In this document: positions 1 through 53,342 of the stretch, piece after piece
How the letters are laid out: each line of letters starts with the position of its first letter
How positions within the stretch are numbered: position 1 is the stretch's first letter
Source: an uncultured Methanomicrobiales archaeon
GTDB taxonomy: Archaea > Halobacteriota > Methanomicrobia > Methanomicrobiales > Methanospirillaceae
DNA: 64,000 nt
Direction: 5' to 3'
NCBI GenBank assembly: GCA_963697895.1
Contig: OY969100.1
Span: 832,001-896,000, forward strand
Made by a program: the position numbers and the translations under genes
Notes under the pieces: model-generated
Databases searched by the model: none
What the model saw: the letters and a program-made list of their open reading frames with translations, nothing else
Told to the model about the DNA's origin: nothing

Positions 1-1774
1 GAGGCCGGTCCCTACCCGTGGGAAGAAATCATCAACTGATCATCCACCGATTCACCCAACCGGCCCTGCCACGCGCGCCGGGCTTGGAGAAGATCGGTGG
101 CGGATATACGAACTGGTGCTCCGCAGGTTTCTGGCGACCTTGAGCCCTGATGCACTCTGGATGACCCAGAAAGTTAATTTCATTGCGGGATCAGAGCCCT
201 ATACGGTCACCGGTGGAAGGCTGATCGAGCCAGGCTGGCGGACTGTGTACCCCTTCAGCGAGGCGAAGGAGTACGTTCTCCCGCCCTTCATTGCCGGAGA
301 ACACCTCCCGATCTGTTCGGTGCATCTCGATGAGAAAGAAACGCAACCACCACCACGGTTTACGCAGAGCCGGTTGATCCAGCGGATGGAGGAACTCGGT
401 CTCGGAACGAAAAGTACCCGTCATGAAGTGATCCAGAAACTGATCGCGCGAAAATACGCGGAGGGAAATCCGCTCCGTCCCACCCTCGTGGGACGAGCGG
501 TCATTGAATCCCTGGAAAATCATGCGGACACTATCACCCGACCGGCGATGACCCAGACTCTCGAGTCCCACATGCAGCAGATCAAAGAACGGAAACGGAC
601 GAGCGAGGATGTGGTCACCGAGTCCCGGCAGATGCTGAACCAGGTATTCGATCAGATGGAACCCCATTCTGAAGAGATTGGAAGCGAGATCCGGGAGCAG
701 ACCGCAGAGGAGCTGACCCTCGGCCCGTGCCCTGCCTGTGGCACAGATATCCGGATACGGCATATGCGAAGTCAGGCTCAGTTCATCGGCTGTAACCGGT
801 ATCCGGATTGTTCTTTCAATATCAGCCTCCCCATGATGCTCTGGGGGTTTGCGGTGCGGACCGATGAAATCTGTCCCATCCACCGGCTCCATCATGTGCG
901 GCTGATAAAGAAAGGGGCGCGCCCGTGGGAGATAGGTTGTCCGCTCTGTCACCATATCAGCACGAACCGGGAGACGATGGTCCTGATTCCTTCCATGAAT
1001 CCCGCGATCCTGGACAGCCTGCACGTTCATCACATCTATTCAGTCTATGATCTTGCCAAAAGCAGCCCCGGGAACATCTCGAAGATAACTGGTCTTCCCG
1101 ATGAAAGTGCCGGTTTGCTGGTCCGGGAGGCCGAAGATGTGCTTACGCTTCTCCGAAAACGTTCAGACTGCCGCAAATTCGTCCGACGTCATCTTCCACC
1201 ACGGAGGGGGCGGAGCCATGCAGCGATTGTGAAAAAGTTATTGGATGCCGGGATCGACGACATCCCAACCCTTGGATCTGCGGAAATTAAAAAACTTATA
1301 TCTGCGGGCATTGGCGAAAAAGAAGCTTTATTGCTGCAGGGTGAAGCGAACAGGCTTTCGAGCGAGCGCCGTCTGCGTGAGATTGGGATCCCGCCGGTGA
1401 GTCTGAAGCGATATCAGGCGGCCGGGATTATCACGCCGGAAGAATTGATAAGCTTTCATCCCGCATATACCAGCCAGAAGACCGGGATAAGCCTTGAAAC
1501 TGTCTGTAGGCACGTAGAGCTCGTGGCACAGAAACTCGGGAAGCCGTTCCCTGGGCGATGCTCAAAGGCGCAACTCGAAAAGGGCAGGAAAGAGCTCCTT
1601 TCCATCCATGGACTGGGAGATTCAGCCCTGGAGAAACTGTACCGTGCCGGGATCATCAGCGGAGATGCACTGATCGCTGCAGACCCTGAAGCGGTGTCGG
1701 CAAAAACGGGAATACCAGCCGATAAGATCCGGGAATACCAGGCGCTTTATCGTTCAATCAGAAATAAAACGTGA
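1..1774 (+). CDS. topA: DNA topoisomerase IA, 5'-truncated by the window edge; C-terminal Zn ribbons plus HhH-like repeats
   Basis: Frame is open from position 2 (STDHPPIHPT..IYELVLRRFLA); PPPRFTQSRLI..MEELGLGTKSTR topo IA motif; CPACG/GCNRYPDC Zn ribbon. Confidence 0.95.
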   Translation, partial: RPVPTRGKKSSTDHPPIHPTGPATRAGLGEDRWRIYELVLRRFLATLSPDALWMTQKVNFIAGSEPYTVTGGRLIEPGWRTVYPFSEAKEYVLPPFIAGEHLPICSVHLDEKETQPPPRFTQSRLIQRMEELGLGTKSTRHEVIQKLIARKYAEGNPLRPTLVGRAVIESLENHADTITRPAMTQTLESHMQQIKERKRTSEDVVTESRQMLNQVFDQMEPHSEEIGSEIREQTAEELTLGPCPACGTDIRIRHMRSQAQFIGCNRYPDCSFNISLPMMLWGFAVRTDEICPIHRLHHVRLIKKGARPWEIGCPLCHHISTNRETMVLIPSMNPAILDSLHVHHIYSVYDLAKSSPGNISKITGLPDESAGLLVREAEDVLTLLRKRSDCRKFVRRHLPPRRGRSHAAIVKKLLDAGIDDIPTLGSAEIKKLISAGIGEKEALLLQGEANRLSSERRLREIGIPPVSLKRYQAAGIITPEELISFHPAYTSQKTGISLETVCRHVELVAQKLGKPFPGRCSKAQLEKGRKELLSIHGLGDSALEKLYRAGIISGDALIAADPEAVSAKTGIPADKIREYQALYRSIRNKT

Positions 1775-1807
1775 CATCAGGACCAATACACGGCAGGATT
1801 AACCATC

Positions 1808-2494
1808 ATGCACATGAAATGGAAGAACTGGGTCCATGTAACAAAACTCGATCCGGACAAACATCTGACACCCCAGGCAATTGGTGATATCGCAACGAGC
1901 GGAACAGACGCACTTATGCTCTCCGGGACCCTCAATGTAACCCGCGAGAATATAGGGGACCTCCTTGACCAGGTTGCGTCTTACGATCTCCCGGTGATCG
2001 TTGAGCCCTCCGGTCCGGAAGCGGTGATCTTCGAAGGGATTGATCTTCTGTATGTTCCGAGTGTTCTGAATACTTCAGATGTGCAGTGGATCGTCGGAAA
2101 GCACCGCGACTGGGTGCTGCATCAGGAGGTCGAATGGGAAAAGGTCGTCCCGGAGGCGTATATTGTTCTGAATCCCGACTCCTCCGTGGGGAAAGTCACC
2201 CGGGCAGTCTGCACTCTCTCCGGGGCTGATGTTGCTGCTTACACCCGGGTGGCGGATCATTACTTCCATTTTCCGATTGTCTATATCGAATACAGCGGGA
2301 TGTATGGCGACCCGGCGATTGTAAAGTCCGCATCTGAGGCGATCGACGATGCGATCCTCTACTATGGAGGGGGCATCAACTCTGCTGCGCGTGCGGCTGA
2401 GATGGCCCGGTATGCGGATACGATCGTTGTAGGGAACGCAATCTACGACAAGGGAGTCGCCGCTCTTAAGGAGACTGTACGGGCAGTGCAGTAG
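1808..2494 (+). CDS. pcrB: Geranylgeranylglyceryl phosphate synthase (PcrB/group I)
   Basis: HVTKLDPDK, EAYIVLNP, YIEYSG, YGGGI, IVVGN motifs. Confidence 0.92.
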   Translation: MHMKWKNWVHVTKLDPDKHLTPQAIGDIATSGTDALMLSGTLNVTRENIGDLLDQVASYDLPVIVEPSGPEAVIFEGIDLLYVPSVLNTSDVQWIVGKHRDWVLHQEVEWEKVVPEAYIVLNPDSSVGKVTRAVCTLSGADVAAYTRVADHYFHFPIVYIEYSGMYGDPAIVKSASEAIDDAILYYGGGINSAARAAEMARYADTIVVGNAIYDKGVAALKETVRAVQ

Positions 2495-2514
2495 CACCCG
2501 TACGAAAACGTATC

Positions 2515-3213
2515 ATGCCCCGGGTGGAAATTGTCCTTATCAACCCACTCTACGAAGGGAATGTGGGGTTCTCCGCCCGCGTGATGAAGAACTTCGGGTT
2601 TGAACATCTGGTCCTGGTCGATCCCTGTCCCCTGGGAGAGGAAGCGAAAGCCCGCGCTTCACATGCCCAGGATGTGCTCCGGAATGCATTTCATTCCTCG
2701 CTGGATGACGTTTTCAGGCGAAGTTCTCTCACCATCGCCACCACCGGGGAGGTCAGCAAATCTGTCTGTCATGCAATGCGTATGCCTTTTTATTCTCCGA
2801 GAGAAGTGAGAGAATTGATCTGCGATATCAACGGAACCGTCTCGATTCTTTTTGGGAGGGAGAACTGGGGGTTGAATAACGAAGAGATCAGGAGGAGCGA
2901 TCTGATATGCACGATTCCATCGAACCCCGGATATCCGATCCTCAACCTCTCTCATGCCGTTGGCATCCTCTGCTATGAACTCGCGCACCTTCCGCGGGGG
3001 AGCTATCTTCTCGCTTCCCCAGAGGAGATGGATCATCTCTACCGGCATATCGACCGGTTCCTTACCCGGATCGACCACCCACCCTTCAAGCGGGAGAATA
3101 CAATGCTTCTTATCCACCGGATCCTTGGCAGGGCACATCTGACGGTTCGGGAGGCGAGTACCCTCCACGGTCTCATGCGACGCACCGAATGGCAGATGGA
3201 TAATAAAAAGTAA
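2515..3213 (+). CDS. trmJ: TrmJ/LasT-family SPOUT tRNA methyltransferase
   Basis: [35 protein letters not shown]. Confidence 0.9.
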
Positions 3214-3241
3214 ACCATCAGACCGCCATATTATCTCGTAC

Positions 3242-3799
3242 ATGATCCTTGTCGACTGGCAGATCCTCGATCGCATCGGAAGAGGGTTTATCAAAATTGA
3301 ACCGTTTGACCCCGAACTCGTCCAGCCTAATTCACTCGATATCAGGCTTGGCAACCACTTCGTCTGGTATCAGGTAGGAGACGAGGTGATCGACCCCTAT
3401 CATAAGGACACGGTGAGCTCAGGGACCTCCGATCTCCATGCGGATTCGGTAGTGCTCGAACCTGGACAGTTTGTCCTTGCCGAGACTCTAGAAAGAATAG
3501 AGCTGCCGGACAATGTGGTCGCAAGCATTGAGGGGAAGAGCAGTATCGCCCGTCTGGGAATAGAGCTTCACCAGACCGGGGGGTGGATAGATGCGGGCTT
3601 TCGGGGAAGCATCACATTAGAGATGTGTAATGTAAACCAGCGCCCGGTCCGCATGTATGCGGGGATGCCTATCGGGCAGCTGGTCTTCTATACCACCGAA
3701 CGGGCAATGCGCCCTTATAATATGAAAAAAGATGCCAAATACATGGATCAACGCCAGGCAACCCTTTCCCGGTACCATGAAAACCGGAGAAGGAGCTGA
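3242..3799 (+). CDS. dcd: dCTP deaminase
   Basis: [39 protein letters not shown]. Confidence 0.93.
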
Positions 3800-3862
3800 A
3801 TGCTATATACCCCATGAAAACACAATTAATGAGGAATGATTCCATCAATCTGGAGATGAACA

Positions 3863-5689
3863 ATGCGGCTTCTTCTGATACATTCGGATTTTATTGAATA
3901 TGAGGCGAGGAAAAAGACTGCGATGGCCGAAGAAGGCGGAGTTCTGAAGGATTCAGAAAACGAGGCCCTCACTGTTTTTTGTGCTGTGGAATCGGTCGAT
4001 GAGGAAGATATAGGGAGCGTTGTTGAACAGGCGGTTGAAGAGGTGGCGGGAACCGCGACCCAGCTGGCGGTCGAGAATATCGTTATTTATCCCTATGCCC
4101 ATCTGAGCAGCGACCTTGCAAGACCGGATGTGGCCGTTGCCGCTCTCCGGGCACTCGAAGCCGGTCTGCTCGCTTCCGGATACCGGGTAAAGCGGGCCCC
4201 GTTCGGATGGTACAAGGCGTTCAGAATATCGTGCAAAGGTCACCCGCTCTCTGAACTATCAAAGACGATTGTTCCATCCGGGGATATCGCAAAAGAGGGA
4301 AGAACCATCGAACACGAGTTTTTTGTGATGACACCGGATGGCCGGCGTAATGAAGTGGAGGATTACCTGGATGACTCCCCATTCGGGTGCCTCGTTCGAA
4401 AAGAACTGGGCGAGGCAGTTCCCACCGGGGGAGAACCGCTACACGTTGAGCTCATGAGGGCGAAAGAACTGGTCGATTACGAACCGGTGAGCGATGTCGG
4501 TCATCTACGCTGGATGCCCCGCGGGAAACTCATCCGGGATCTGCTCGCCGATTACGTGTTGCAGCTCGTGCTCCCATACGGTGCAACACCAGTGGAGACG
4601 CCGGTTATGTACGACCTTGCCGACCGTGCGATCGCCGAGCATGCCGACAAATTCGGAGAACGTCAGTATCGGTTCAAAAGCGGGAACAGGAATATGATGC
4701 TCCGGTTTGCCGCATGTTTTGGGATGTTCTCGATCATGCGGAACATGCATATTTCACCCAATTATCTCCCGATGAAGATGTATGAACTCTCTACATACTC
4801 CTTCCGGCATGAGCAGAAAGGCGAGGTGATCGGGTTGAAGCGGCTCCGTGCGTTCACGATGCCGGATATGCATACCCTGTGTACCGATATGCCTGAAGCA
4901 CTCCGGTGCTTCGAGGAGCAACTGGCGATGGGCTGGAAGACCGGATCTGATTTCGGAACCAATCTGGTCGGGGTGTTCCGGTGCACGCGGGACTTTTTTG
5001 AGGAGTACCATGAGTGGGTGAAAGAGATGGTTGCCGAATCCGGGGTGCCGATGCTCATCGAGATCCTTTCAGACCGCGTGCACTACTGGATTGCCAAAGT
5101 AGACCTGGCAGCGATTGACGGGCAGGGCAGACCTATAGAGAACCCGACTGTCCAGATCGATGTCGAGAGCTCTGCCCGGTTTGACATAAAATATCACCAG
5201 GACGGGGAGGTTATCCACCCGCCTATCCTCCACTGCTCCCCTACCGGGAGTATAGAGCGGGTGATATGCGCGATTCTCGAGAGCACGGCGACCCAGGCGG
5301 TCCCGCGCCTGCCAACCTGGCTCTCCCCGACACAGGTCCGCGTGGTTCCGGTGGCCGAACGGCACATGGATGCAGCGGCAGAACTCTGCAAGCGGTTTAA
5401 TGCCGCCTGTATCAGGACGGATCTGGATGACCGCGATGAAAGCGTCGGGAAGAAAGTCAGGGAGGCCGGCATGGACTGGATCCCGTATGTCGTGGTGTTC
5501 GGGGACGCAGAACTCCAGTCGGGCCGGCTCACAGTAACGATACGGGAAAAATCAGCGCCGAATAAACCCTTTAAAGAGACGCTCACGACAGAAGAGTTGA
5601 TGAAGAGACTATCCAGAGATATTGCAGGAAAACCGTTCCGACCCCTTTATACCCCCCGGAAACTTTCAATAAAAGCGCGGTACATCTGA
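3863..5689 (+). CDS. thrS: Threonyl-tRNA synthetase (archaeal type with N-terminal editing domain)
   Basis: [48 protein letters not shown]. Confidence 0.97.
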
Positions 5690-45551: not shown

Positions 45552-46526
45552 ATGAAAAGCGTCATTATCTCCTCTAAAAAAGAGGAGACGCCGAATATTA
45601 CCCAGTTTCTGAGGACAATTCCTTTCATACAGGAAGATTTTCCGACCATCACCCGGATCACCATCTCCATCCCGGACGAGGAGCTGGATGCCCTCCTGTC
45701 GAATATCCAGGAAGCACTCCGGTTCATGGATAAATCGACCCTAGTAGAGGTATATTCCCCGGAATTTGTAATATCACGCCAGATCGATGAGTGGAAAGAG
45801 GCAAAGACAGAAAAGAAAAAAGGGGCAAGGACAGCGGTTGAAAAGCTCCTCGATTCGGCCGAATCACAGGCGAGACCCAACTGGGATACCCTCATGTTTG
45901 CGATCATCGGAACCGAGGTTGCACTCATGGGGTTGTTTATCAACAGCATCGGGGTGATCATCGGGACGATGCTCATTTCTCCGCTCCTTGGACCCATCTC
46001 CGCGTTCGCGGTTACCACCTCGGCCGGATACACCCGGCTGGTGATATCGAGCGTCCGGACGCTGATGATCTACATCTTTGCCATCATCATCATCGCGTTC
46101 GTCACCACCTTCATCCTGTCGCTCTTTATGGAACTCCCAATCACCCCCGAGATACTGAGCCGGACCACTTCCAGTCCCATTTATATCGCGATGGCGATCA
46201 TGCTCGGAATAGCAGCGATAATCGCCCTCTCAAAAGAGATCCCGGACGCGATAACGGGGGTGGCAATCGGGGCGGCCCTGCTCCCCCCCGCAGTCGGTAC
46301 TGGGAATCACCGGGGCGATCTATCCCGAAGGAGTGGTCGGTGCATTTCTCCTCACCTTCGAGAACATTGTCGGTCTGATGATCGGGAGTGTCTCGGAGCC
46401 CTCATTCTTCGGATCGTTCCCCGTGGGTACCGGGAACAGATCGCCGCGAGAAAGATCATCGGGCGCACGCTCATTGTCCTTGTGATCCTCATACTGGCAC
46501 TGCTGGCACTGGTGCTGCTGACATGA
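45552..46526 (+). CDS. TIGR00341/DUF389 membrane protein with compensating frameshifts at about 46300-46395
   Basis: VIIG.MLI.PL.GP, EIL.RT, GVAI..ALLPP; alternative frame gives hydrophobic GITGAIYPEGVVGAFLLTFENIVGLMIGSV. Confidence 0.85.
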   Translation: MKSVIISSKKEETPNITQFLRTIPFIQEDFPTITRITISIPDEELDALLSNIQEALRFMDKSTLVEVYSPEFVISRQIDEWKEAKTEKKKGARTAVEKLLDSAESQARPNWDTLMFAIIGTEVALMGLFINSIGVIIGTMLISPLLGPISAFAVTTSAGYTRLVISSVRTLMIYIFAIIIIAFVTTFILSLFMELPITPEILSRTTSSPIYIAMAIMLGIAAIIALSKEIPDAITGVAIGAALLPPAVGTGNHRGDLSRRSGRCISPHLREHCRSDDRECLGALILRIVPRGYREQIAARKIIGRTLIVLVILILALLALVLLT

Positions 46527-46635
46527 AAGGAAAATACGATCCCCGTGTATGCGGATAGAATTTTCAGGTTTTTGATAATTTATTTCGATTCTCAGATATT
46601 GAGACCCCAAAACAATACTATAAATGTCACCCAAC

Positions 46636-46650
46636 CTAACATTATGTAAA
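46636..46650 (+). promoter_or_regulatory. HSR1-like operator CTAAC-N5-GTAAA between the TATA box and the start codon
   Basis: CTAAC ATTAT GTAAA; TATAAA at about 46619-46624; resembles CTAAC-N5-GTTAG. Confidence 0.5.
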
Positions 46651-46653
46651 TAT

Positions 46654-47271
46654 ATGTTGGATCCTGTAGAGGTTTCACGTCTGCTCGATATCCTTGGCAA
46701 CCGGAACCGCAGACGTATCATCGAACTATTGCGACAGAAACCCTGTTTTGTTACCGAGATCTCTGACCGGCTGACGCTCTCCCCGAAGGCGGTCATCGAA
46801 CATCTCCAGATGATGGAGCGGGAAGAGATACTCTCGTTCCGTCTCGATGAACGGCGGCGGAAATATTACTATCTGGCAAACGATATCAGCATCATGTTAA
46901 GCCTCGAGAGGCAGGAGAACATCAAGATTATCCCGGTCACGGACCAGATGACCCGTTTCCGGACCTCCCTGCATATGCTCAACAGGATGGTTGCTGTCCG
47001 CGAGGACATAGCCTCCAGCCTGAAGTACCTTGATGCAGATATCGACCGCAAGATCCGGGAGATCATCGAGAGTGGGAACGAGATCCTCGGCAGCGAGAAG
47101 GAGACGGACCTTATCATAGCGCTTTCTCATTATCGCCTCGGGATAGATGACCTTCACGAATTAACCGGAATTCCGGTTGACGAGGTGCAGAAAGAACTTA
47201 AACTCCTGGTAGAGAAGAATATCGTCGAAAAAGACGGACCCGTGTTCAAATTACGAGGCATCCATGCCTGA
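46654..47271 (+). CDS. ArsR-type wHTH regulator (heat-shock regulator HSR1/Phr-like)
   Basis: LLDILGN.NRRRI..LL..KP.FV.EIS..L..SPKAV.EHL, R.RKYY; coupled to hsp20. Confidence 0.85.
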   Translation: MLDPVEVSRLLDILGNRNRRRIIELLRQKPCFVTEISDRLTLSPKAVIEHLQMMEREEILSFRLDERRRKYYYLANDISIMLSLERQENIKIIPVTDQMTRFRTSLHMLNRMVAVREDIASSLKYLDADIDRKIREIIESGNEILGSEKETDLIIALSHYRLGIDDLHELTGIPVDEVQKELKLLVEKNIVEKDGPVFKLRGIHA

Positions 47272-47695
47272 TAAAACCGATGAAAACCCCTATGAAGAGT
47301 TGATGAGACAGATCGCCCGGATTGTGGAAGATATCGTGAAAAGTCTCCCAGACCAGAAGAACGCCCGGTTCATCGGGTGTACCATCATATCGGGCACGAA
47401 CTCCGATGCGCCGAAGGTCTTTCATGTCAGAAGTGAGAAGCCGCCGGAGATCTCGTATGAAGTGATCGAAGCGGAAGACCGGATCTTCATCACCGCCCTG
47501 ATACCACCCGAGGTGCCCGCCCTTGCTTATGCCGATATAAGGCCGGATGCGGTCCATATCCGGGCAGGCAACCTGCAGGCCAGCATCACGCTCCAGAAAC
47601 CGATAGATGTCATCCACAGCTTCTACCGGGTGCGGCATGGAGTCATGGATATCGTCCTCTCAAAACCGAGGGTACGTGTCTCGGATGCCCGTTAA
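47264..47695 (+). CDS. Hsp20/alpha-crystallin-like protein
   Basis: YEV.E....I.ITA.IP, GV.DI.L; overlaps the regulator stop. Confidence 0.75.
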   Translation: MPDKTDENPYEELMRQIARIVEDIVKSLPDQKNARFIGCTIISGTNSDAPKVFHVRSEKPPEISYEVIEAEDRIFITALIPPEVPALAYADIRPDAVHIRAGNLQASITLQKPIDVIHSFYRVRHGVMDIVLSKPRVRVSDAR

Positions 47696-47934
47696 ACGGA
47701 AAGAAAAGATACCAGATAATTCCCCCCCTTGAAAATGGAATTAAGTCTTTTCCTCAAATGAGAGGAGTACATCTCTCCAGTTTGGCATGCGATTTAGTCC
47801 ATAAGATGATGTAATAACCCTCCCATTCTTTTTATGTCCAGGGAAACACCAGCATCAAGGAAGTCCCTGACACACTGTGGTTTTGTGGGATCTGAAAAGT
47901 AAGGAAAAAGAATTTAATCTTTATATCGGGCCCG

Positions 47935-48414
47935 TCATGGCCCGGTAACATTGCACCACAGGACGTACGTCGTCTCGTTCCCGGTCACATTCTCGAAAGG
48001 CCGCCGGTAGATTCCGGAGAACTCCTGCAAGCCATTCTTTACGGTGAGGACTTCCCATGTATGAATTCCCCCGGCGCCGATAAGCCCTGATGTGGGTGGT
48101 ATGAAGGTGTCATTTGTAATCTGCAGCCCGTCGGTTACCGTAATGTTCCATGAATAGCCGGTTGTCGGGTTTTCCTGGAGCCATACGGTGAAGGTACTCC
48201 CGAGGGGAACTGCCACGGTCGTCCCGTTGGCGGATTCGTTGTACACATACATGATGGGCGTTGTAGTCGGCATCGGGGTCATGGTTGCAATCGTCGTCGC
48301 CGTAGTTGTCGGAGTCGGAGTTACCGGCGGGGTCACCGGCTGGGTACATCCCGCAACGAGGATGGCAGCAAGACAAAGAATTGCAACAGCGCCAAAAATC
48401 TTTAATTTTTGCAT
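47935..48414 (-). CDS. Lipoprotein with chagasin/I42 cysteine protease inhibitor domain
   Basis: Lipobox LVAGC, Thr/Pro linker, ENPTTGYSW, GAGG...W, YRRP. Confidence 0.9.
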   Translation of the reverse strand: MQKLKIFGAVAILCLAAILVAGCTQPVTPPVTPTPTTTATTIATMTPMPTTTPIMYVYNESANGTTVAVPLGSTFTVWLQENPTTGYSWNITVTDGLQITNDTFIPPTSGLIGAGGIHTWEVLTVKNGLQEFSGIYRRPFENVTGNETTYVLWCNVTGP

Positions 48415-48756
48415 TTTCTACCTCAGGGAAATTTGGGCGGGATGAGGAAATATACGTTTCGAGATGCGATCTAAAAGAAATTTTGGAGGATACCTGTCCG
48501 GACACTAACTTGGAACTGCCAAACGCGATATGATGATGAATGGGTGAACGATCAGCTATGTACAGATGGCATCATCGATCCGATCCCGAAGGGATTTTTA
48601 AGCGCCAAAAGTTCTGGGAGAGTAGATTCAGGAAGAAAAGAGCCCGTTAGAATCCCTCCCTTCTGTTCAGGAATGTCCCGATACCCCCCTTCAGACGGAA
48701 TTTTTTTGAACCAGTTATTTTATCGTAACCAGATTTTTTTTCTGAAAAAAACCAGA

Positions 48757-50943
48757 TTACCCTGGTACATGTGTTTCCGGGGCAATCCACTCTGATATCT
48801 GTCGCTTTGCCGGTTTGTATTCACTGAACTGACGGAGGGGAACTGTCAGGTCTCGGGTGAATGCAAAATACCCAATCTGTGTATTTTTACAGAGTCTGCA
48901 TTGCCATATCCATCAGCCCCCGCGGGTCGGGACGGGATTCACCGAGCCAGATATGGAATATGTTACCACCATCGACAATCGGGAAAAAGACGTGTTCTAT
49001 GGCCATCCGCCTCGCAAGCGGGATGTTGGCGGAAGGGGCGACATGCGTGCCATTCGTATAGTAGACCGGGAGGTCCCTCGTAGTCCCGAGCTTCTCAAGC
49101 CCACACCTGAGATCTCCTTTGATAACCTTCCGCGCCGGATCCCGGAACTCCTTGTTCAGCAGGTCAGAGACCGCAAACCGCTGTCCGGTCGTCTCAGCGG
49201 GTGTCCGGGCAAGGGCAATCGTCATATGGTGACGCTTGGAGAGCTCCCGGGCATAGAACTCCATCTCGGTCATTGCCCGAACAGCGAGCCTGAATGCCTC
49301 CGGGGACTCGTGGAGCTGCATGCCGGTATGTGTCTGGACCATTTCGTTTACCCCGACAATCCCGATCGTGTAGACCAGGCTGTCGAGATCAACCCCTACA
49401 GCACCTCGTTCTCCGGTTATCGGATCTTTCGGGCGCTGCATAGCAAATGGCATCCGACCATGCGCCCGGATCAGATCCATCCAGCGGCGCTTGATCCGGA
49501 AGACTTCCACGCAGACATCCATGAGCGACTTCGAGCTCGGAAAAGAGACGTTCTGATCATCACCGTTCGCCCGGTATGCGGCTCGGGGGCAGTTAAGGGA
49601 GACCACCTGCCAGGAACCCATGCTGAAGTGCATCCCGTCTTTGAACCGGAGTTTCTCCTCGAATCCTTCATCCTCCTCCGCGACGGCAGAGAACTGGTAG
49701 GCACAACACTGGTAGCAGGAGATCCCTTTCCCCGCTCCCCGATATTCCGGCATCTGGTTGTCATAATACGGGGTTCCGAACTTGGATGCCAGCTCGAATG
49801 TCATGAGATAGAGATCACGGTACGTGGGAAGATCGGGGTGCTCCTGGTTGAACGCTTCATCCTCCTGCATGAAATCCGGCTCGATGCTGATCTCAGGCTT
49901 CGGGAAACTGAACGGCTTTCCCCAGTAGTCTCCCTCGAGCATCACCTCCATCAGCGCCTTGAAGAGGAGCCGCACCTCGCTTTCGAACTCTTTGTAGGTG
50001 CGGAGCGGTGCCGCTTCCCCGTCCCAGATCTTCCCCTTATATATGCAGGGTTTGTCTTTCCAGAGCGCCGGCACCCCGGGGCTGAGCTGTACAGATGAAA
50101 AGACGAGCTGGCCGCCACGGGCGACCATCATCTGGGTCATCTCGTAGACAAACATCTGCATCAGCTGCCGGATCTCATCATATGCCATTCCCTCGAAGAA
50201 CGGGGCGATGAAGGTGAGGAAATTATAATACCCCTGACCGCCGGCAAAATTTGTCTGTGCACTCCCGAGCGCCTTCACCGCGTGGAGAACCGCGACTTCA
50301 GCCCGCTTTGCCGGGCCGGCGACCGATGCCTTGGTGCCGTTTCCATCCGGCATCAGCCCGTAGTAAAAGAAATACCTGAGATCCCAGTCCTGGCAGAAGG
50401 GCCGGGTGCCAAAGTATTCGAGATCGTGGATATGGATATCCCCGGAGAGATGCCGGTCCGCAAGCGGCGGCGGGAGCTGGAGCAGGTACTGTTCCTTGCT
50501 GATCTTGTCTGCCTTTTTTTTATGCGAGGTCTCGGCATTTTCCTGGAGATTTGCATTATCCTTTGCCTCAAAGCCCCTCCCGACGTCGATCAGGTGTGCA
50601 TCATAGACCGGTGTTCCGACCCGGGTGCAGACGTTCCGGTACTGGACCATAGACTGTTCCAGGAGGGTGATATTGACGATCTCCCTTATGAGGGGACCAG
50701 AAAGGGAATGGAGGCCCATACGGAGGATCCGCTGTTCAACCAGCCGCGCGATCTCCTGGGCCGTCGCCTCATCTGCCCCGTCATGCCCATAGAAGATCCC
50801 GACGAGCTGGGTCTCCTCCAAAATCTGGCGTACTATCTGCTGGCGGTCCCATTCAACGATATGACCGTCCGTCGTCCGTACCGGGGGGACTGCGGGATGA
50901 ATAAACCATCAAGCGTTGTCTGTTTTGCCGAGCGGACCACCAT
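48757..50943 (-). CDS. nrdD: Anaerobic (class III) ribonucleotide reductase NrdD; frameshifted in this assembly; no C-terminal glycyl-radical domain
   Basis: ATP cone (VRTTDG...WDR..I; LSGPLIRE.VN), H..G.IHIHDL, RPFC, FSFPKP, YQCCAY, TPAETT, YYTNGTH, GGNIFHIWLGE; indels near 50885, 49530-49555 and 48898. Confidence 0.9.
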
Positions 50944-51215
50944 CAAACACCCTTCATCAGCTGGTTCATCCGATCTTCCCGGACCTGCCCTCCCGAAAAA
51001 AGATCATTCGATATCAGAAATACAGACCGGTTCTGCAGGACCGGGGCTTCCTGTACGAAAACCCCGTTGATCCGGAGTTCGGTGAGGGATTCAGGGGTCG
51101 CCATATCCCGTTCAGAATAGGAAATGCCGTGTTCCGTCAGGAATCTTTTTAACAATTCGCAATTCGGGCAATCCTCAAGCGTGTATACGATCAGCTGCGG
51201 TGTATTATCTGTCAT
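50943..51215 (-). CDS. nrdH: Glutaredoxin-like NrdH
   Basis: VYT...CPNC..LK.FL, APVL; stop overlaps the nrdD start. Confidence 0.88.
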   Translation of the reverse strand: MTDNTPQLIVYTLEDCPNCELLKRFLTEHGISYSERDMATPESLTELRINGVFVQEAPVLQNRSVFLISNDLFSGGQVREDRMNQLMKGV

Positions 51216-51408
51216 GGTGTATCCCCCCGGATGTATGGTTATCTGTTCGTTCTGCTCCTCAAAAAAAATTTCTTCTTTTGATTCGGTCTGCACAGTGATA
51301 CAGGAATCTATCATTGCAGATCTCATCTGTCCGGTGGATATGATCATTGAGGATATTATAATCTCTGATAGCCTCCTGATCTGAAGAGAGAGAAGGAGAC
51401 GATATTCT

Positions 51409-51948
51409 GTGGTAAGGACATTCATTGCAATCGATCTGGCTCCCGAGGTCCGTGAACGGCTTTCGGAATCACAGGATACCCTGAAACAGTGCAGCGCCCG
51501 GCTTACCCTCGTCGATCCGGAAAACATCCATCTCACGCTCAAATTTCTCGGGGAGGTCTCCCCGGCCCAGATTGAACAAATAACGGGGGTGCTGCGGGAG
51601 ATAGCGGGGACTCCTTTCGATATCTCACTCGATTGCATTGTCGGGAATACCTCGTCGCGTCCCCGTGTCATCTGGTGTACCATTTCAGACGAGGGAGCGT
51701 GCACCTCCCTTGCGGGCCGGATCGAAGAGGCCCTCGCCCCCCTCGGGTTCAGGCGTGAAGATCGTCCCTTTACTCCGCACGTGACGGTGGCACGGGTCAG
51801 GAATTACGATCCCTCACTATCGCGGGCCCTGAAAGAAGTGGGAGCCCGGCGGCACGGTACCTGCAGGATAACCGGATTTTCCCTGAAAAAGAGCACCCTG
51901 ACCCCCCAGGGACCGATATATGAGGATATCGAGAAGGTGACCTGGTGA
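51409..51948 (+). CDS. thpR: RNA 2',3'-cyclic phosphodiesterase (2H family)
   Basis: R.FIA, HLTLKFLGE, PHVT.AR, S.L...GP.Y. Confidence 0.93.
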   Translation: MVRTFIAIDLAPEVRERLSESQDTLKQCSARLTLVDPENIHLTLKFLGEVSPAQIEQITGVLREIAGTPFDISLDCIVGNTSSRPRVIWCTISDEGACTSLAGRIEEALAPLGFRREDRPFTPHVTVARVRNYDPSLSRALKEVGARRHGTCRITGFSLKKSTLTPQGPIYEDIEKVTW

Positions 51949-53342
51949 ACCGGTCTCCGCTTGAGCAGCAGGTGCTCGAAAGGATACGACCTTCACCTGC
52001 GGAGAGAAAACACGTCGAGGTGATTGCCGGCCGGATCATCCAGATAATTGAGGGGCGGGGTGTTCCGGCGATGGTCGTCGGTTCCGTCGCGCGGCATACC
52101 TGGGTCTCCGGTGACAGAGATCTGGATATTTTTATGCTGTTTGATCCCGGACTCCCGCGGGAAGAGCTGGAGAGACAGGGGCTCTCACTCGCCCGTGAAG
52201 TCACTACACTATTCGGAGCTGTCTACCGAGAGAAATATGCCGAACACCCTTATATCAACGCATGTATCGAAGAGATCGATGTAGACCTGGTACCTTGTTA
52301 CCTGCTGGAAAATGCCCGGACGATCCAGTCGGCAGTAGATCGCACGCCATTTCATACCCGGTATATCCAGGAGCGAATTGAACCGTATATCGATGATGTG
52401 CTGCTCCTAAAGCAGTTCTCGAAAGCGGGAGGCGTCTACGGATCGGATCAGATGACAGAGGGGTTTTCCGGGTATCTCACTGAACTTCTGATCCTCATGT
52501 ACGGGGGGTTTATCCCGGTTCTTGAAGCCGCCTCACAATGGCGACCCGGCACGATCATCGATCCTGAGAAACACCGCGCAAAGGAGTTCGGTGAACCGCT
52601 CGTGGTGGTGGACCCGGTCGATCCGGAGCGGAACGTATCGGCATCGGTTTCGCTGACACGGATGTACGAATTCGTGGAGCTGGCACGGGGATACCTCTCT
52701 TCACCGTCGCGGTCATTTTTCTTCCCACCGGACCAGGCACCCGGCGACTACGGCGAATTCAGGGCTGAACGAGCCCGGCGGGGCACCCCGCTCTATGCTC
52801 TTCGGTTTGCTACGCCACCCTATATCGAGGATATCGTAGTGCCGCAGCTCAGGAAGAGTACCGAGGCGGTCTGTGATCTCCTGGGACGTCACGGGTTCAG
52901 CGTCAATCGGGCCGACTATTGCATGGGATCTGATGAGTGTATGCTCATCTTCGAGCTTCTGGTCGACCGGCTTCCCACCGTAAAGAGGCATGCAGGGCCT
53001 CCCCTCTGGAACCGGGGCAATGCTGAAAAATTTGCGGCTAAATATCAGGATAACCGGATCCCTTCCCAATATTCAGGTCCATACATCGAAGATGGGTGTT
53101 ACATGGTCGAGATCTCCCGACGATTCATTTGTGCAGGCGATCTCCTTCGTTCCCATGAGGTGCTGGATGTGGGACTCGGGAAACACGTGAAACAGAGTAT
53201 GAGAGAACGATGGGATCTGGACGAGGGCGATGGATGCTGGCATGAGCAGTACCGTACGTTTTTGAGCGAATTCTTCGTGAAATCTTCACCCCTCGTTCGC
53301 ATACGCAGATTGGATCGGATTGATACAGGAGATCCCATCTGA
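51945..53342 (+). CDS. cca: Class I CCA-adding enzyme
   Basis: GS.AR.TW..GD.DLD.F, YAEHPY, D.VPC, SAVDRTPFH, GFSGYL.E. Confidence 0.95.
   Translation: MNRSPLEQQVLERIRPSPAERKHVEVIAGRIIQIIEGRGVPAMVVGSVARHTWVSGDRDLDIFMLFDPGLPREELERQGLSLAREVTTLFGAVYREKYAEHPYINACIEEIDVDLVPCYLLENARTIQSAVDRTPFHTRYIQERIEPYIDDVLLLKQFSKAGGVYGSDQMTEGFSGYLTELLILMYGGFIPVLEAASQWRPGTIIDPEKHRAKEFGEPLVVVDPVDPERNVSASVSLTRMYEFVELARGYLSSPSRSFFFPPDQAPGDYGEFRAERARRGTPLYALRFATPPYIEDIVVPQLRKSTEAVCDLLGRHGFSVNRADYCMGSDECMLIFELLVDRLPTVKRHAGPPLWNRGNAEKFAAKYQDNRIPSQYSGPYIEDGCYMVEISRRFICAGDLLRSHEVLDVGLGKHVKQSMRERWDLDEGDGCWHEQYRTFLSEFFVKSSPLVRIRRLDRIDTGDPI

Follow-up and report, generated by a model that had tools for sequence, protein, structure and literature searches.

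Where does a class III ribonucleotide reductase (RNR) keep its radical when the gene for its catalytic protein stops short of the glycyl-radical domain? The question is raised by an nrdD gene in a 64,000-nucleotide stretch of a Methanomicrobiales contig (C1:832001-896000), the whole of which we call the window. In the accessible parts of the literature that we searched, glycyl-radical enzymes carry the radical glycine and the catalytic core on one chain, with GrcA/YfiD as the one exception that acts in trans. That literature presents GrcA/YfiD and phage T4 Y06I as stand-alone glycyl-radical proteins that serve pyruvate formate-lyase (PFL) as “spare parts” (PMC13450708). A first reading of the window (the original prediction) had proposed a two-component NrdD with a separately encoded radical subunit. 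This proposal is supported by a small open reading frame (ORF) and an nrdG gene elsewhere in the genome and by the shared ends of orthologous genes, and we estimate the probability at roughly 0.8 that the window gene encodes the large subunit of a heteromeric two-gene class III RNR whose radical domain would be supplied in trans. The features of the locus, from the 5′ side of the coding strand to the 3′ side, are as follows.

50943..51215, minus strand: nrdH-like glutaredoxin gene, 90 aa, with a CPNC motif (Pfam Glutaredoxin, 26.1 bits; cut-off, 22.9)
50883..50943, minus strand: 5′ piece of nrdD in a frame of its own, MVVRSAKQTTLDGLFIPQSP (three-frame translation)
48896..50882, minus strand: main body of nrdD, class III RNR large subunit, PVRTTDGHIVEWDR ... 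MDMAMQ (TIGR02487 and Pfam NRDD matches)
50393..50395, minus strand: cysteine codon of RPFCQDW, invariant in alignment A1 (C186 of the G004 protein)
49703..49708, minus strand: two adjacent cysteine codons within GISCYQCCAYQF (all A1 sequences share C412, C415, and C416, G004 numbering)
48895, minus strand: extra base “a” (coding strand, within cag-a-ctc), shifting the frame to a premature TAA at 48889-48887
48757..48894, minus strand: 3′ piece of nrdD, LCKNTQIGYFAFTRDLTVPL, followed by a poorly conserved tail and the stop codon TAA 48759-48757
48744..48766, minus strand: hairpin ACCAGGGTAATCTGGT over the stop codon, then T7, a terminator-like gene end from a consensus scan (a pattern match only; the region has 6 such sites versus 2.6 expected)

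The nrdD gene ends before the zinc site and the glycyl-radical loop

The ORF listed at 50821..48887 (minus strand) ends in ...RGLMDMAMQTL* at TAA 48889-48887. With 443.6 bits against TIGR02487, it scores above the curated cut-off (326.35) of the class III RNR catalytic-subunit family and covers profile positions 1-512 of 581; its match to Pfam NRDD (E 1.5e-123) covers positions 1-491 of 562. Removal of base 48895 brings MDMAMQLCKNTQIGYF into one frame, and relatives' nrdD genes have MDMAM[KN]LC[RK].TQIGYF in a single frame. The second frame, LCKNTQIGYFAFTRDLTVPLRQFSEYKPAKRQISEWIAPETHVPG*, terminates at TAA 48759-48757, and its translation contains neither a CxxC motif nor a glycine loop. The claim that nrdD, once an indel is corrected, ends at this codon without a Zn site or glycyl-radical loop is confirmed by this frame and by the profile coverage. 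The absence of such a motif downstream, also claimed, was borne out when all six frames of the window were scanned for R[VIT][TSC]G[YF]: none of the six matches has an upstream CxxC or a downstream WN..K..E..DR. Neither the window gene nor any of the 28 complete orthologues encodes one chain that spans the whole NrdD profile, including the Zn site and the glycine loop.

The main body of the protein probably comprises a degenerate ATP-cone and the catalytic core. The window gene contains two candidate catalytic sites, RPFCQDW and GISCYQCCAYQF, both invariant in the 25 sequences of alignment A1. In keeping with known NrdD structures, we take the cysteine of the former to be the barrel (beta-A) active-site cysteine and the Cys-Cys pair of the latter to be the finger-loop thiyl site. 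The tail that follows ..LRQF.E has a mean column identity of 0.51, versus 0.88 for the body, and we identified no docking element on this weakly conserved tail. An AlphaFold2 model of the large subunit, built from the shallow alignment A1, was poor (mean pLDDT 55.5); the assignment of the core fold therefore comes from sequence profiles only. Rfam gave no match at E <= 0.1 between 47500 and 52500, and no RNA run was listed as containing the nrdD locus.

A 120-residue protein encoded elsewhere in the genome carries the C-terminal domain

A search of the genome with the NrdD profile gave two matches, one to positions 1-518 in the window gene and the other, in an open frame of 128 aa, to positions 541-581 (E 1.9e-13). 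The original prediction had called for a small CxxC-rich ORF ending in a glycyl-radical motif, and we found one: a Cys-rich ORF of 120 aa at C1:1859380-1859742, ~977 kb from nrdD, that ends R-V-T-G-Y...WN..K..E..DR. In this genome, the glycyl-radical motif R(V/I)xGY with a downstream WN..K..E..DR is present only in trans, on this ORF. The Pfam NRDD profile is likewise divided between an intact large subunit (positions 1-510 of 562 in G004) and the small protein (positions 506-562 in G000).

The last 42 residues of the small protein are the usual NrdD C-terminus, and the first 78 are a family-specific Cys/His-rich extension. Residues 77-116 match the stretch 697-737 of the Prevotella copri NrdD structure, PDB 8p23 (E 1.2e-7). 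In an alignment of relatives, ten cysteines (C29, C32, C41, C44, C53, C60, C71, C74, C79, and C82), two histidines (H62 and H85), and RVTGY are invariant; C71, C74, C79, C82, and H85, and likewise the other invariant cysteines and H62, are candidate ligands of one or more metals. A median dN/dS of 0.09 was obtained for the small gene; its N-terminal extension alone gave 0.12 and its last 42 codons 0.04, all of which are rough values at a dS of about 1.6. Modeled alone with AlphaFold2 and without metal, the protein reached a mean pLDDT of 70.4, with the glycine loop below 50; a Foldseek search of this model against the PDB returned generic zinc-ribbon fragments only, none below E = 2. The gene is flanked by pyrF and a CbiZ/CbiS-like gene.

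The small-protein family was also found in 102 metagenomic clusters at E <= 1e-10, and stand-alone small ORFs of the same family occur beside full-length NrdD in 5/5 other methanogen genomes examined (G452, G268, G444, G411, and G399). A search with the single protein P0258 hit 13 loci in bacterial records and, among them, no relative of the whole small protein: the matches are to its C-terminal part only (within residues 75-146), and we take these loci to be NrdD C-termini. Two longer homologues came to light: an unsplit enzyme, P0122, and P0121, a helicase-like protein with an NrdD loop at its end that is possibly chimeric. In databases, the 729-aa and the 120-aa proteins share the name “anaerobic ribonucleoside-triphosphate reductase”; the small protein sometimes appears as “RPABC4/Spt4”, “oxidoreductase”, or “hypothetical”.

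The genome encodes an activase, a redoxin, and a second RNR

The original prediction noted no nrdG in the window and proposed looking for one in the rest of the genome. Both points hold: the only above-cut-off NrdG2 match of the genome lies outside the window, at C1:189054-189578, ~692 kb from nrdD (TIGR02495, 135.2-135.9 bits; cut-off, 131.15). Its product has Radical_SAM and Fer4_12 Pfam domains. Directly upstream of nrdD, the stop codon of the nrdH-like gene (TGA 50945-50943) shares one base with the nrdD start codon (ATG 50943-50941); the nrdH-like product also has weak matches to the NrdH and YruB NCBIfam models, below their cut-offs. No PFL-like or Gly_radical (PF01228) Pfam match was found in the genome, which leaves no other partner for the small protein. 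nrdD, the small gene, and nrdG are unlinked, so gene context lends no support to a joint function. A class I/II-type large-subunit gene (Pfam Ribonuc_red_lgC) is also present; class III reduction therefore need not be essential, and conservation is the sole argument for function.

Frame breaks in the assembled gene are most likely assembly indels

The assembled nrdD is broken twice relative to its orthologues. Besides the extra base at 48895, a second break near the 5′ end falls within six consecutive C at 50888-50883; the orthologues read M..R.T.Q.TLDG.F.P..PPVRT.DGHI uninterrupted in one frame. Only one indel had been postulated beforehand. The extra base at 48895 is peculiar to this assembly, being missing from the contigs of 4/4 related metagenome runs (3 studies, 95-99% alike). 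The Ribonuc_red_lgC gene of the same assembly also looks frame-broken, as does a gene in locus L003 that, judging by its sequence, is putatively thiC. Because base 48895 is absent from all four runs, the other break lies in a C6 run, and further genes are frame-broken, the two breaks are probably not biological, and assembly indels are their most likely origin.

We considered whether the window copy is nevertheless a true pseudogene, with both breaks real mutations in a lineage whose system is otherwise functional. Both breaks do stand in the assembled sequence, the one at 48895 lies outside any homopolymer, and the class I/II-type gene could meet the need for deoxynucleotides. However, this explanation has to contend with the four runs that lack the extra base, with the homopolymer at the second break, and with frame breaks in other housekeeping genes of this one-contig genome, whose completeness is just 93.85% for a single contig; moreover, the small gene and nrdG are intact in the same genome. 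We consider a true pseudogene unlikely.

The split is conserved among relatives, and its genes were lost together in one genus

All 28 complete large genes of relatives stop at the same place, without CxxC or RVTGY, as the original prediction would have it for orthologues. In a sample of the class, the NrdD profile match ends at positions 529-543 of 581 in the large genes among the matches listed. The large subunit is 77-85% identical to the genes of 40/41 relatives, and C186, C412, C415, and C416 (G004 numbering) are invariant in alignment A1. The small gene is found in 40/41 relatives and, in the class sample, in 186/201 genomes, with open frames that span 121-290 aa among the matches listed; these genomes are kin, and the counts are not independent.

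Large gene, small gene, and nrdG were lost together in the genus g30. There, the NrdD profile matches in 1/16 genomes, the small gene in 2/16 (both weak, ~E 5e-6), and NrdG2 above its cut-off in 0/32. In the sister genus g24, the corresponding numbers are 8/8, 7/8, and 8/9 genomes. The joint loss probably represents a single event.

These patterns bear on a reading in which the shortened large protein has given up nucleotide reduction, being a relic or having taken on a new role, while the small protein acts alone or with another partner. The lack of linkage among nrdD, the small gene, and nrdG would fit it, as would the second RNR gene. On the other side are the 77-85% identity with invariant active-site cysteines, a score against the NrdD equivalog model that is far above its cut-off, the joint loss of the three genes in one genus, the absence of any other glycyl-radical enzyme core in the genome, and the nrdH-like gene that overlaps the start of nrdD. 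The original prediction had itself named a relic as a possible undoing, and in the face of this conservation we regard it as very unlikely.

The split probably arose once from an unsplit methanogen enzyme

The 753-aa unsplit protein P0122 is tiled by the two split proteins. Its residues 5-696 are 67% identical to the large subunit, and its residues 709-750 are 76% identical to residues 79-120 of the small protein, with a 12-residue linker alone left unmatched. In a phylogenetic tree, the split large subunits (16, drawn from 6 families) group as a single clade with 100/100 support, nested among unsplit sequences. On this basis, the best explanation is that the split arose once, on the stem of the Methanomicrobiales, from an enzyme type that sister lineages kept unsplit. 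Two further observations were discounted as evidence. A correlation between pairwise identities of large and small genes (r = 0.74; 136 pairs from 17 genomes) reflects shared descent rather than interaction. Three genomes of family f2 pair a retained cysteine in the large-subunit tail with a CPSCG motif of the small protein; the three are closely related, and the pairing probably goes back to one event.

Inteins occur in relatives' large genes at both catalytic sites. At one, the RPFCQDW cysteine is the +1 residue; at the other, the intein lies directly before the Cys-Cys pair. Insertion at both catalytic cysteine sites argues that the large protein is made and used. That inteins are common in relatives' nrdD might also suggest that the two products are joined into a single-chain NrdD, by protein trans-splicing or at the RNA level. 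However, Pfam detects no intein or Hint domain in the large-subunit tail or the N-terminus of the small protein, where only NRDD, ATP-cone, and zinc ribbons are matched; the tail, at ~26 residues, is poorly conserved and falls short of the usual size of a split intein's N-terminal half; and the genes lie ~977 kb apart. We give such joining next to no credence.

An artefact of sequencing or assembly as the sole reason for the missing domain, for which one could point to the indels within this very gene, is refuted: the corrected frame runs to 48759-48757 without restoring the domain, the 28 complete orthologues that share the ending come from independent assemblies, and contigs of other runs span the stop region without a longer frame.

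Comparison with known radical enzymes

The proposed two-subunit enzyme resembles single-chain NrdD (phage T4, E. coli, Thermotoga maritima, and Prevotella copri; PDB 8p23, 4coi, and 4u3e) in its TIGR02487 and PF13597 matches, its active-site cysteines, its CxxC...R(V/I)TGY...WN..K..E..DR motif, and the presence of NrdG in the genome. It differs in that its putative Zn site and its loop reside on a second polypeptide of 120 aa, encoded ~977 kb away, and in that the 78-residue Cys/His-rich N-terminal extension of this polypeptide is without counterpart in unsplit enzymes.

The proposed enzyme also resembles the unsplit methanogen-type NrdD, represented by P0122 and by genes of 777-804 aa in L064-L068; the identities to this type (67% for the large subunit and 76% for the glycine loop) were measured with P0122. 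In these unsplit forms, too, an NrdH-like gene adjoins nrdD, and it is among their sequences that the split clade nests. We presume that they correspond to the “NrdD3” type, of which the Methanosarcina barkeri enzyme reportedly relies on an NrdH-like redoxin together with a ferredoxin:disulfide reductase. Whereas the unsplit type carries ..T[LV]C..(12)..C.NCGS...SR[VI]TGY in one chain, the first cysteine of this motif is lost in 25/28 split large subunits, and the split small proteins have a doubled CPxCG...CPxCG.H motif instead.

Like GrcA/YfiD and Y06I, the small protein (120 aa, RVTGY) is free-standing, carries a glycyl-radical motif, and would serve a large core in trans. GrcA, however, is a back-up: the PFL that it serves is encoded at full length and has lost its own domain to cleavage by O2. 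The large subunit described here is encoded without such a domain, and the small protein, unlike GrcA, would therefore be obligatory; a full-length enzyme with its own radical domain does not coexist with it in this genome or order. The small protein also belongs to the NRDD family (positions 506-562) rather than to Pfam Gly_radical (PF01228), and it is rich in zinc ribbons. The situation in the five other methanogen genomes, with small ORFs alongside a full-length NrdD, is closer to that of GrcA/YfiD. Class I RNR alpha/beta offers a further likeness, by analogy only: catalytic and radical-storing subunits are separate polypeptides there as well, but a ferritin-like beta with a metal/tyrosyl site shares no homology with a glycyl-radical loop served by a radical-SAM activase.

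A model for a two-chain class III RNR

The gene architecture, its conservation, the joint loss of the genes, and the tiling of an unsplit homologue are observed; from these we infer that the two subunits bind each other, that NrdG activates the free small protein, and that the complex is an active enzyme. In the model that we propose, the large subunit (~690-730 aa) has kept a cone-like N-terminus, the core for catalysis, and its active-site cysteines but stops just past the last core strand (..IGYFAFTRDLTV), and the glycyl-radical loop and putative Zn site that it lacks are on the separate 120-aa protein. The NrdG2-type radical-SAM activase would put the radical on the RVTGY glycine of the small protein; the small protein would then dock onto the large subunit so that this glycine reaches the finger-loop cysteine pair, and the NrdH-like glutaredoxin would deliver the electrons for turnover.

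More tentatively, and at somewhat less than even odds, the 120-aa protein may be an exchangeable “radical cartridge” that is activated by NrdG off the enzyme, plugs in, and is alone replaced, at a cost of 14 kDa, after cleavage by O2. The original prediction had likewise suggested a replaceable radical subunit that might limit O2 damage. The same-family ORFs beside full-length NrdD in other methanogens and the 102 metagenomic clusters would be in keeping with such a cartridge. The Methanomicrobiales would then have made the small protein obligatory by discarding the built-in domain.

Significance of a split NrdD

We found no description of a split NrdD in the available parts of PMC4390871, PMC13450708, PMC11528403, PMC9669993, and bioRxiv 10.1101/2022.04.23.489257. 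Two papers that mention both NrdD and Methanomicrobiales (PMC9694453 and PMC11308548) have titles and abstract openings on other subjects. The present database names obscure the two-gene architecture. A 2026 review limits the known spare-part proteins to those of formate lyases and considers it “yet to be determined” whether other glycyl-radical enzymes have them (PMC13450708). If our main reading is correct, an obligate two-chain class III RNR across an order of methanogens would answer this question for RNR; if the cartridge reading is also correct, the small-protein family would represent the first such system known in RNRs. A two-chain enzyme would be a convergent mirror of the class I layout of catalytic subunit and radical subunit, and it would provide a natural construct with a free glycine domain, which bears on how the activase gains access to a buried glycine. 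For the organisms themselves, strict anaerobes of peat, wetland, and sediment, it would suggest a cheap means of repairing O2 damage.

The NrdD gene ends short of its glycyl-radical domain

The window carries a class III ribonucleotide reductase (RNR) gene, nrdD, with the following features (plain positions are those of the window; positions prefixed C1 are those of the contig):

51215..50943, minus strand: NrdH-like glutaredoxin gene, 90 aa, overlapping the nrdD start by one base
50943-50941, minus strand: start ATG of the class III RNR gene, which is read in three frames
up to the six-C run 50888-50883, minus strand: nrdD frame 1, MVVRSAKQTTLDGLFIPQSP
up to the premature TAA 48889-48887, minus strand: nrdD frame 2, the main body, PVRTTDGHIVEWDR to MDMAMQ
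up to the stop TAA 48759-48757, minus strand: nrdD frame 3, LCKNTQIGYFAFTRDLTVPLRQFSEYKPAKRQISEWIAPETHVPG
3' end of nrdD, minus strand: hairpin over TAA 48759-48757, then a T7 run

The original prediction held that this gene ends without the Zn site and glycyl-radical loop of NrdD, and that the window has no nrdG. At 644 aa, the listed open reading frame (ORF) exceeds the TIGR02487 cut-off (443.6 against 326.35 bits) but covers only positions 1-512 of 581, and it covers positions 1-491 of 562 in Pfam NRDD. A six-frame motif scan of the entire 64-kb window found no glycine-loop context, and no NrdG2 match over the cut-off lies inside the window, the sole such match in the genome being outside it. 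Profile coverage, the empty motif scan, and the location of NrdG2 therefore confirm both observations.

The gene order LigT-like, nrdH-like, nrdD, Hsp20-like, ArsR-type regulator is common to this genome (G000) and to G004, a relative whose large subunit is intact (window 46624-53342 compared with locus L047; neighbors judged by sequence only). Just 3' of nrdD is a 159-aa lipoprotein-like ORF (47935-48414, minus strand) containing a peptidase inhibitor domain of the chagasin family (I42; Pfam E 1.6e-24).

Frame breaks are very likely assembly indels

One base at 48895 is absent from the contigs of four out of four public runs with near-identical sequence (95-99% alike, from three studies), and without it nrdD reads MDMAMQLCKNTQIGYF in a single frame. 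The same single-frame reading, MDMAM[KN]LC[RK].TQIGYF, is found in all relatives. The 5' break is the six-C run, where one more base is needed for the QSPPVRT reading of the orthologues. The G000 assembly is one contig, 93.85% complete. It also holds a Ribonuc_red_lgC (class I/II-type RNR) gene in two frames (G000:C1:1422452-1423829; loci L061-L063), a gene that we take to be thiC in two overlapping frames (locus L003, 1..1261), and a membrane-protein ORF (window 45552-46526) whose C-terminal part resembles out-of-frame text. These frame-broken genes fit an indel-prone, probably long-read assembly, and the nrdD breaks are very likely assembly indels rather than decay. Correcting both does not restore the C-terminal domain; as predicted, the protein ending at 48759-48757 still lacks it.

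A small glycine-loop protein and an activase are encoded elsewhere in the genome

The original prediction called for a separately encoded, small, Cys-rich ORF with a glycine loop and for nrdG elsewhere in the genome. G000 has both, and the small ORF matches the predicted one nearly letter for letter:

C1:1859392-1859514: second NrdD profile match (positions 541-581, E 1.9e-13), within a 128-aa open frame about 977 kb from nrdD
C1:189039-189839: NrdG2-type activase, 266 aa, 135.2 bits on TIGR02495 (cut-off, 131.15 bits), with Radical_SAM and Fer4_12 domains

Homologues of the 128-aa frame begin at its second Met, giving 120 aa for the small protein. Its residues 66-117 fall on positions 506-562 of Pfam NRDD, of which the intact G004 large subunit takes up 1-510, and its residues 77-116 align to residues 697-737 in the Prevotella copri NrdD structure (E 1.2e-7). 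Pfam searches of the G000 genome gave no PFL-like or Gly_radical match, so the truncated NrdD is the only glycyl-radical core for the small protein to serve that turned up in these searches. The small gene has identical neighbors in G000 and G004, with pyrF upstream and an overlapping CbiZ/CbiS-like gene downstream.

Both genes are conserved, and are lost together

The large gene is present in 40 of 41 genomes (G000 and 40 relatives), as is the small gene, the sole miss for both being one 62%-complete genome. We read 30 large-gene loci, or 28 after setting aside G000 itself and one cut by a contig end. The predicted common stopping point was borne out in all 28 of these complete relatives' genes, which end in ..GYFA[FY]T[RK]D[LM]TV.L.. 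followed by about 25-35 variable residues. In a class sample of 201 genomes, whose rows are all labelled as the same family or the same order, the small gene and the NrdD profile were each found in 186; among the 150 matches listed of about 450, those to the large gene stop at profile position 529-543, none extending to 581. Judging by the names given to homologues in the sources (Methanoregula, Methanofollis, Methanolacinia, Methanospirillum, and others), the family belongs to Methanomicrobiales. In alignments, C186, C412, C415, and C416 of the large subunit are invariant, as are ten Cys, two His, RVTGY, and the motif G..N..K..ELKDR of the small protein. Across 14 small genes dN/dS has a median of 0.09, from 72 usable pairs out of 91, with dS close to saturation at about 1.6.

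Genomes with each component in genus g30 and its sister genus g24
NrdD profile: g30, 1/16; g24, 8/8
Small gene: g30, 2/16 (both weak, about E 5e-6); g24, 7/8
NrdG2 over cut-off: g30, 0/32; g24, 8/9

The loss of NrdD, the small gene, and NrdG2 in g30 is probably a single event; components of one machine would nonetheless be expected to disappear together in this way.

Two further features of the large gene were observed. Genome G048 has two copies of the truncated gene 14 kb apart (C1:285076-286791 and 300796-302511), which score identically on the profile; the open frame of one is shorter (673 versus 747 aa). Some relatives' large genes carry one or two inteins exactly at the two catalytic cysteine sites, ...EYFGTRPF|CIDGST...LLIHN|CQDWDL for the first and ...GISCYQ|CLAGDE...IVTGN|CCAYQF for the second; examples are locus L089 (G028:C1:371300-376900, ORF 188..5224) and rows whose open frames span 1170-1727 aa. 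The intein-bearing genes still end without the glycine domain.

Two chains tile an unsplit NrdD

In P0122, an unsplit metagenomic NrdD of 753 aa, residues 5-696 align at 67% identity to large-subunit residues 10-704 of G004, and residues 709-750 at 76% identity to small-protein residues 79-120 of the same genome, leaving only a 12-residue linker, DGYNMAGGLRDK, without a counterpart in either chain. The large subunit's own 26-residue tail is poorly conserved (mean column identity, 0.51 versus 0.88 for the body). The small protein's own 78-residue N-terminal extension is conserved (mean column identity, 0.80; dN/dS 0.12). Unsplit forms close their last core strand with a Cys (T[LV]C). Of 28 split large subunits, 25 have another residue there, and the three that retain the Cys all belong to family f2. 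Small proteins carry a doubled CPxCG...CPxCG.H motif, whereas unsplit NrdD C-termini have no such motif.

The presence of the small ORF and NrdG in the genome, the shared ending, the joint loss, and the tiling of P0122 support the originally proposed two-component NrdD. We put at about 80% the probability that this is a two-chain class III RNR, a putative complex whose glycine domain is supplied in trans. NrdG would take hydrogen from the RVTGY glycine of the small protein, whose C-terminal 42 residues would sit as in single-chain NrdD, beside the Cys-Cys loop. The Zn-ribbon-rich extension would stabilize the glycine domain and might tether it to the large subunit or to NrdG. The NrdH-like redoxin, the reductant type of methanogen NrdD, would re-reduce the active-site disulfide.

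The individual parts are ordinary NrdD parts; the two-gene architecture is not. GrcA/YfiD of pyruvate formate-lyase is the closest functional precedent for the small protein; it backs up a full-length enzyme and is a member of a different family. A 2026 review describes spare-part proteins as known only for formate lyases (PMC13450708). We found no description of a split NrdD in the portions of the literature searched, which left out key work on methanogen NrdD and NrdD subtypes. Both proteins are already in databases under the same enzyme name; thus, the sequences are not new, and the reading of them is.

Origin of the split

In a maximum-likelihood tree of 16 split and 12 unsplit NrdDs selected by the author, in which long-branch metagenomic rows are unstable, all 16 split large subunits (six families) lie beyond one 100/100 branch, nested among unsplit methanogen enzymes, with two distant NrdDs on the far side. 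Searching 1.84 billion cluster representatives with HMMER gave 295 relatives of the small family at E <= 0.001, of which 102 reach E <= 1e-10; in the 150 matches listed, the best full-length NrdD has about E 1e-8, and all stronger rows are 39-208 aa.

Two isolated matches concern other contexts. P0121, a 612-aa protein from a single JGI contig of 3306 bases, is helicase-like (PF17764, PF00270, PF18319, PF04851) and terminates in the C-terminal sequence of the small protein, perhaps because the contig is chimeric or the gene call fused two genes. In the ESM Atlas, a cluster of 95-aa proteins (57 members; score 0.88) combines the Pfam families Gly_radical and NRDD and is 75% viral among 4 members with known phylum; it is no more than a lead, perhaps to a stand-alone glycyl-radical protein carried by phages.

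Beyond Methanomicrobiales, most matches of the small-protein profile fall on the C-terminus of 760-830-aa NrdDs. Stand-alone homologous ORFs of 118-130 aa with the NrdD glycine loop occur alongside full-length NrdD genes (777-804 aa, complete) in five of five further genomes (G411, G399, G444, G452, and G268; loci L071-L075), and no RNR genes adjoin the stand-alone ORF of G452. Such ORFs could encode a true RNR spare-part protein. In a 50-column glycine-domain tree, weak because of its few columns, one branch (83/99) sets apart 37 of 37 stand-alone proteins, and with them a single full-length row on a long branch. In a plausible history, a free copy of the glycine domain would have come first, as a spare part, and the built-in domain would then have been lost in the Methanomicrobiales ancestor.
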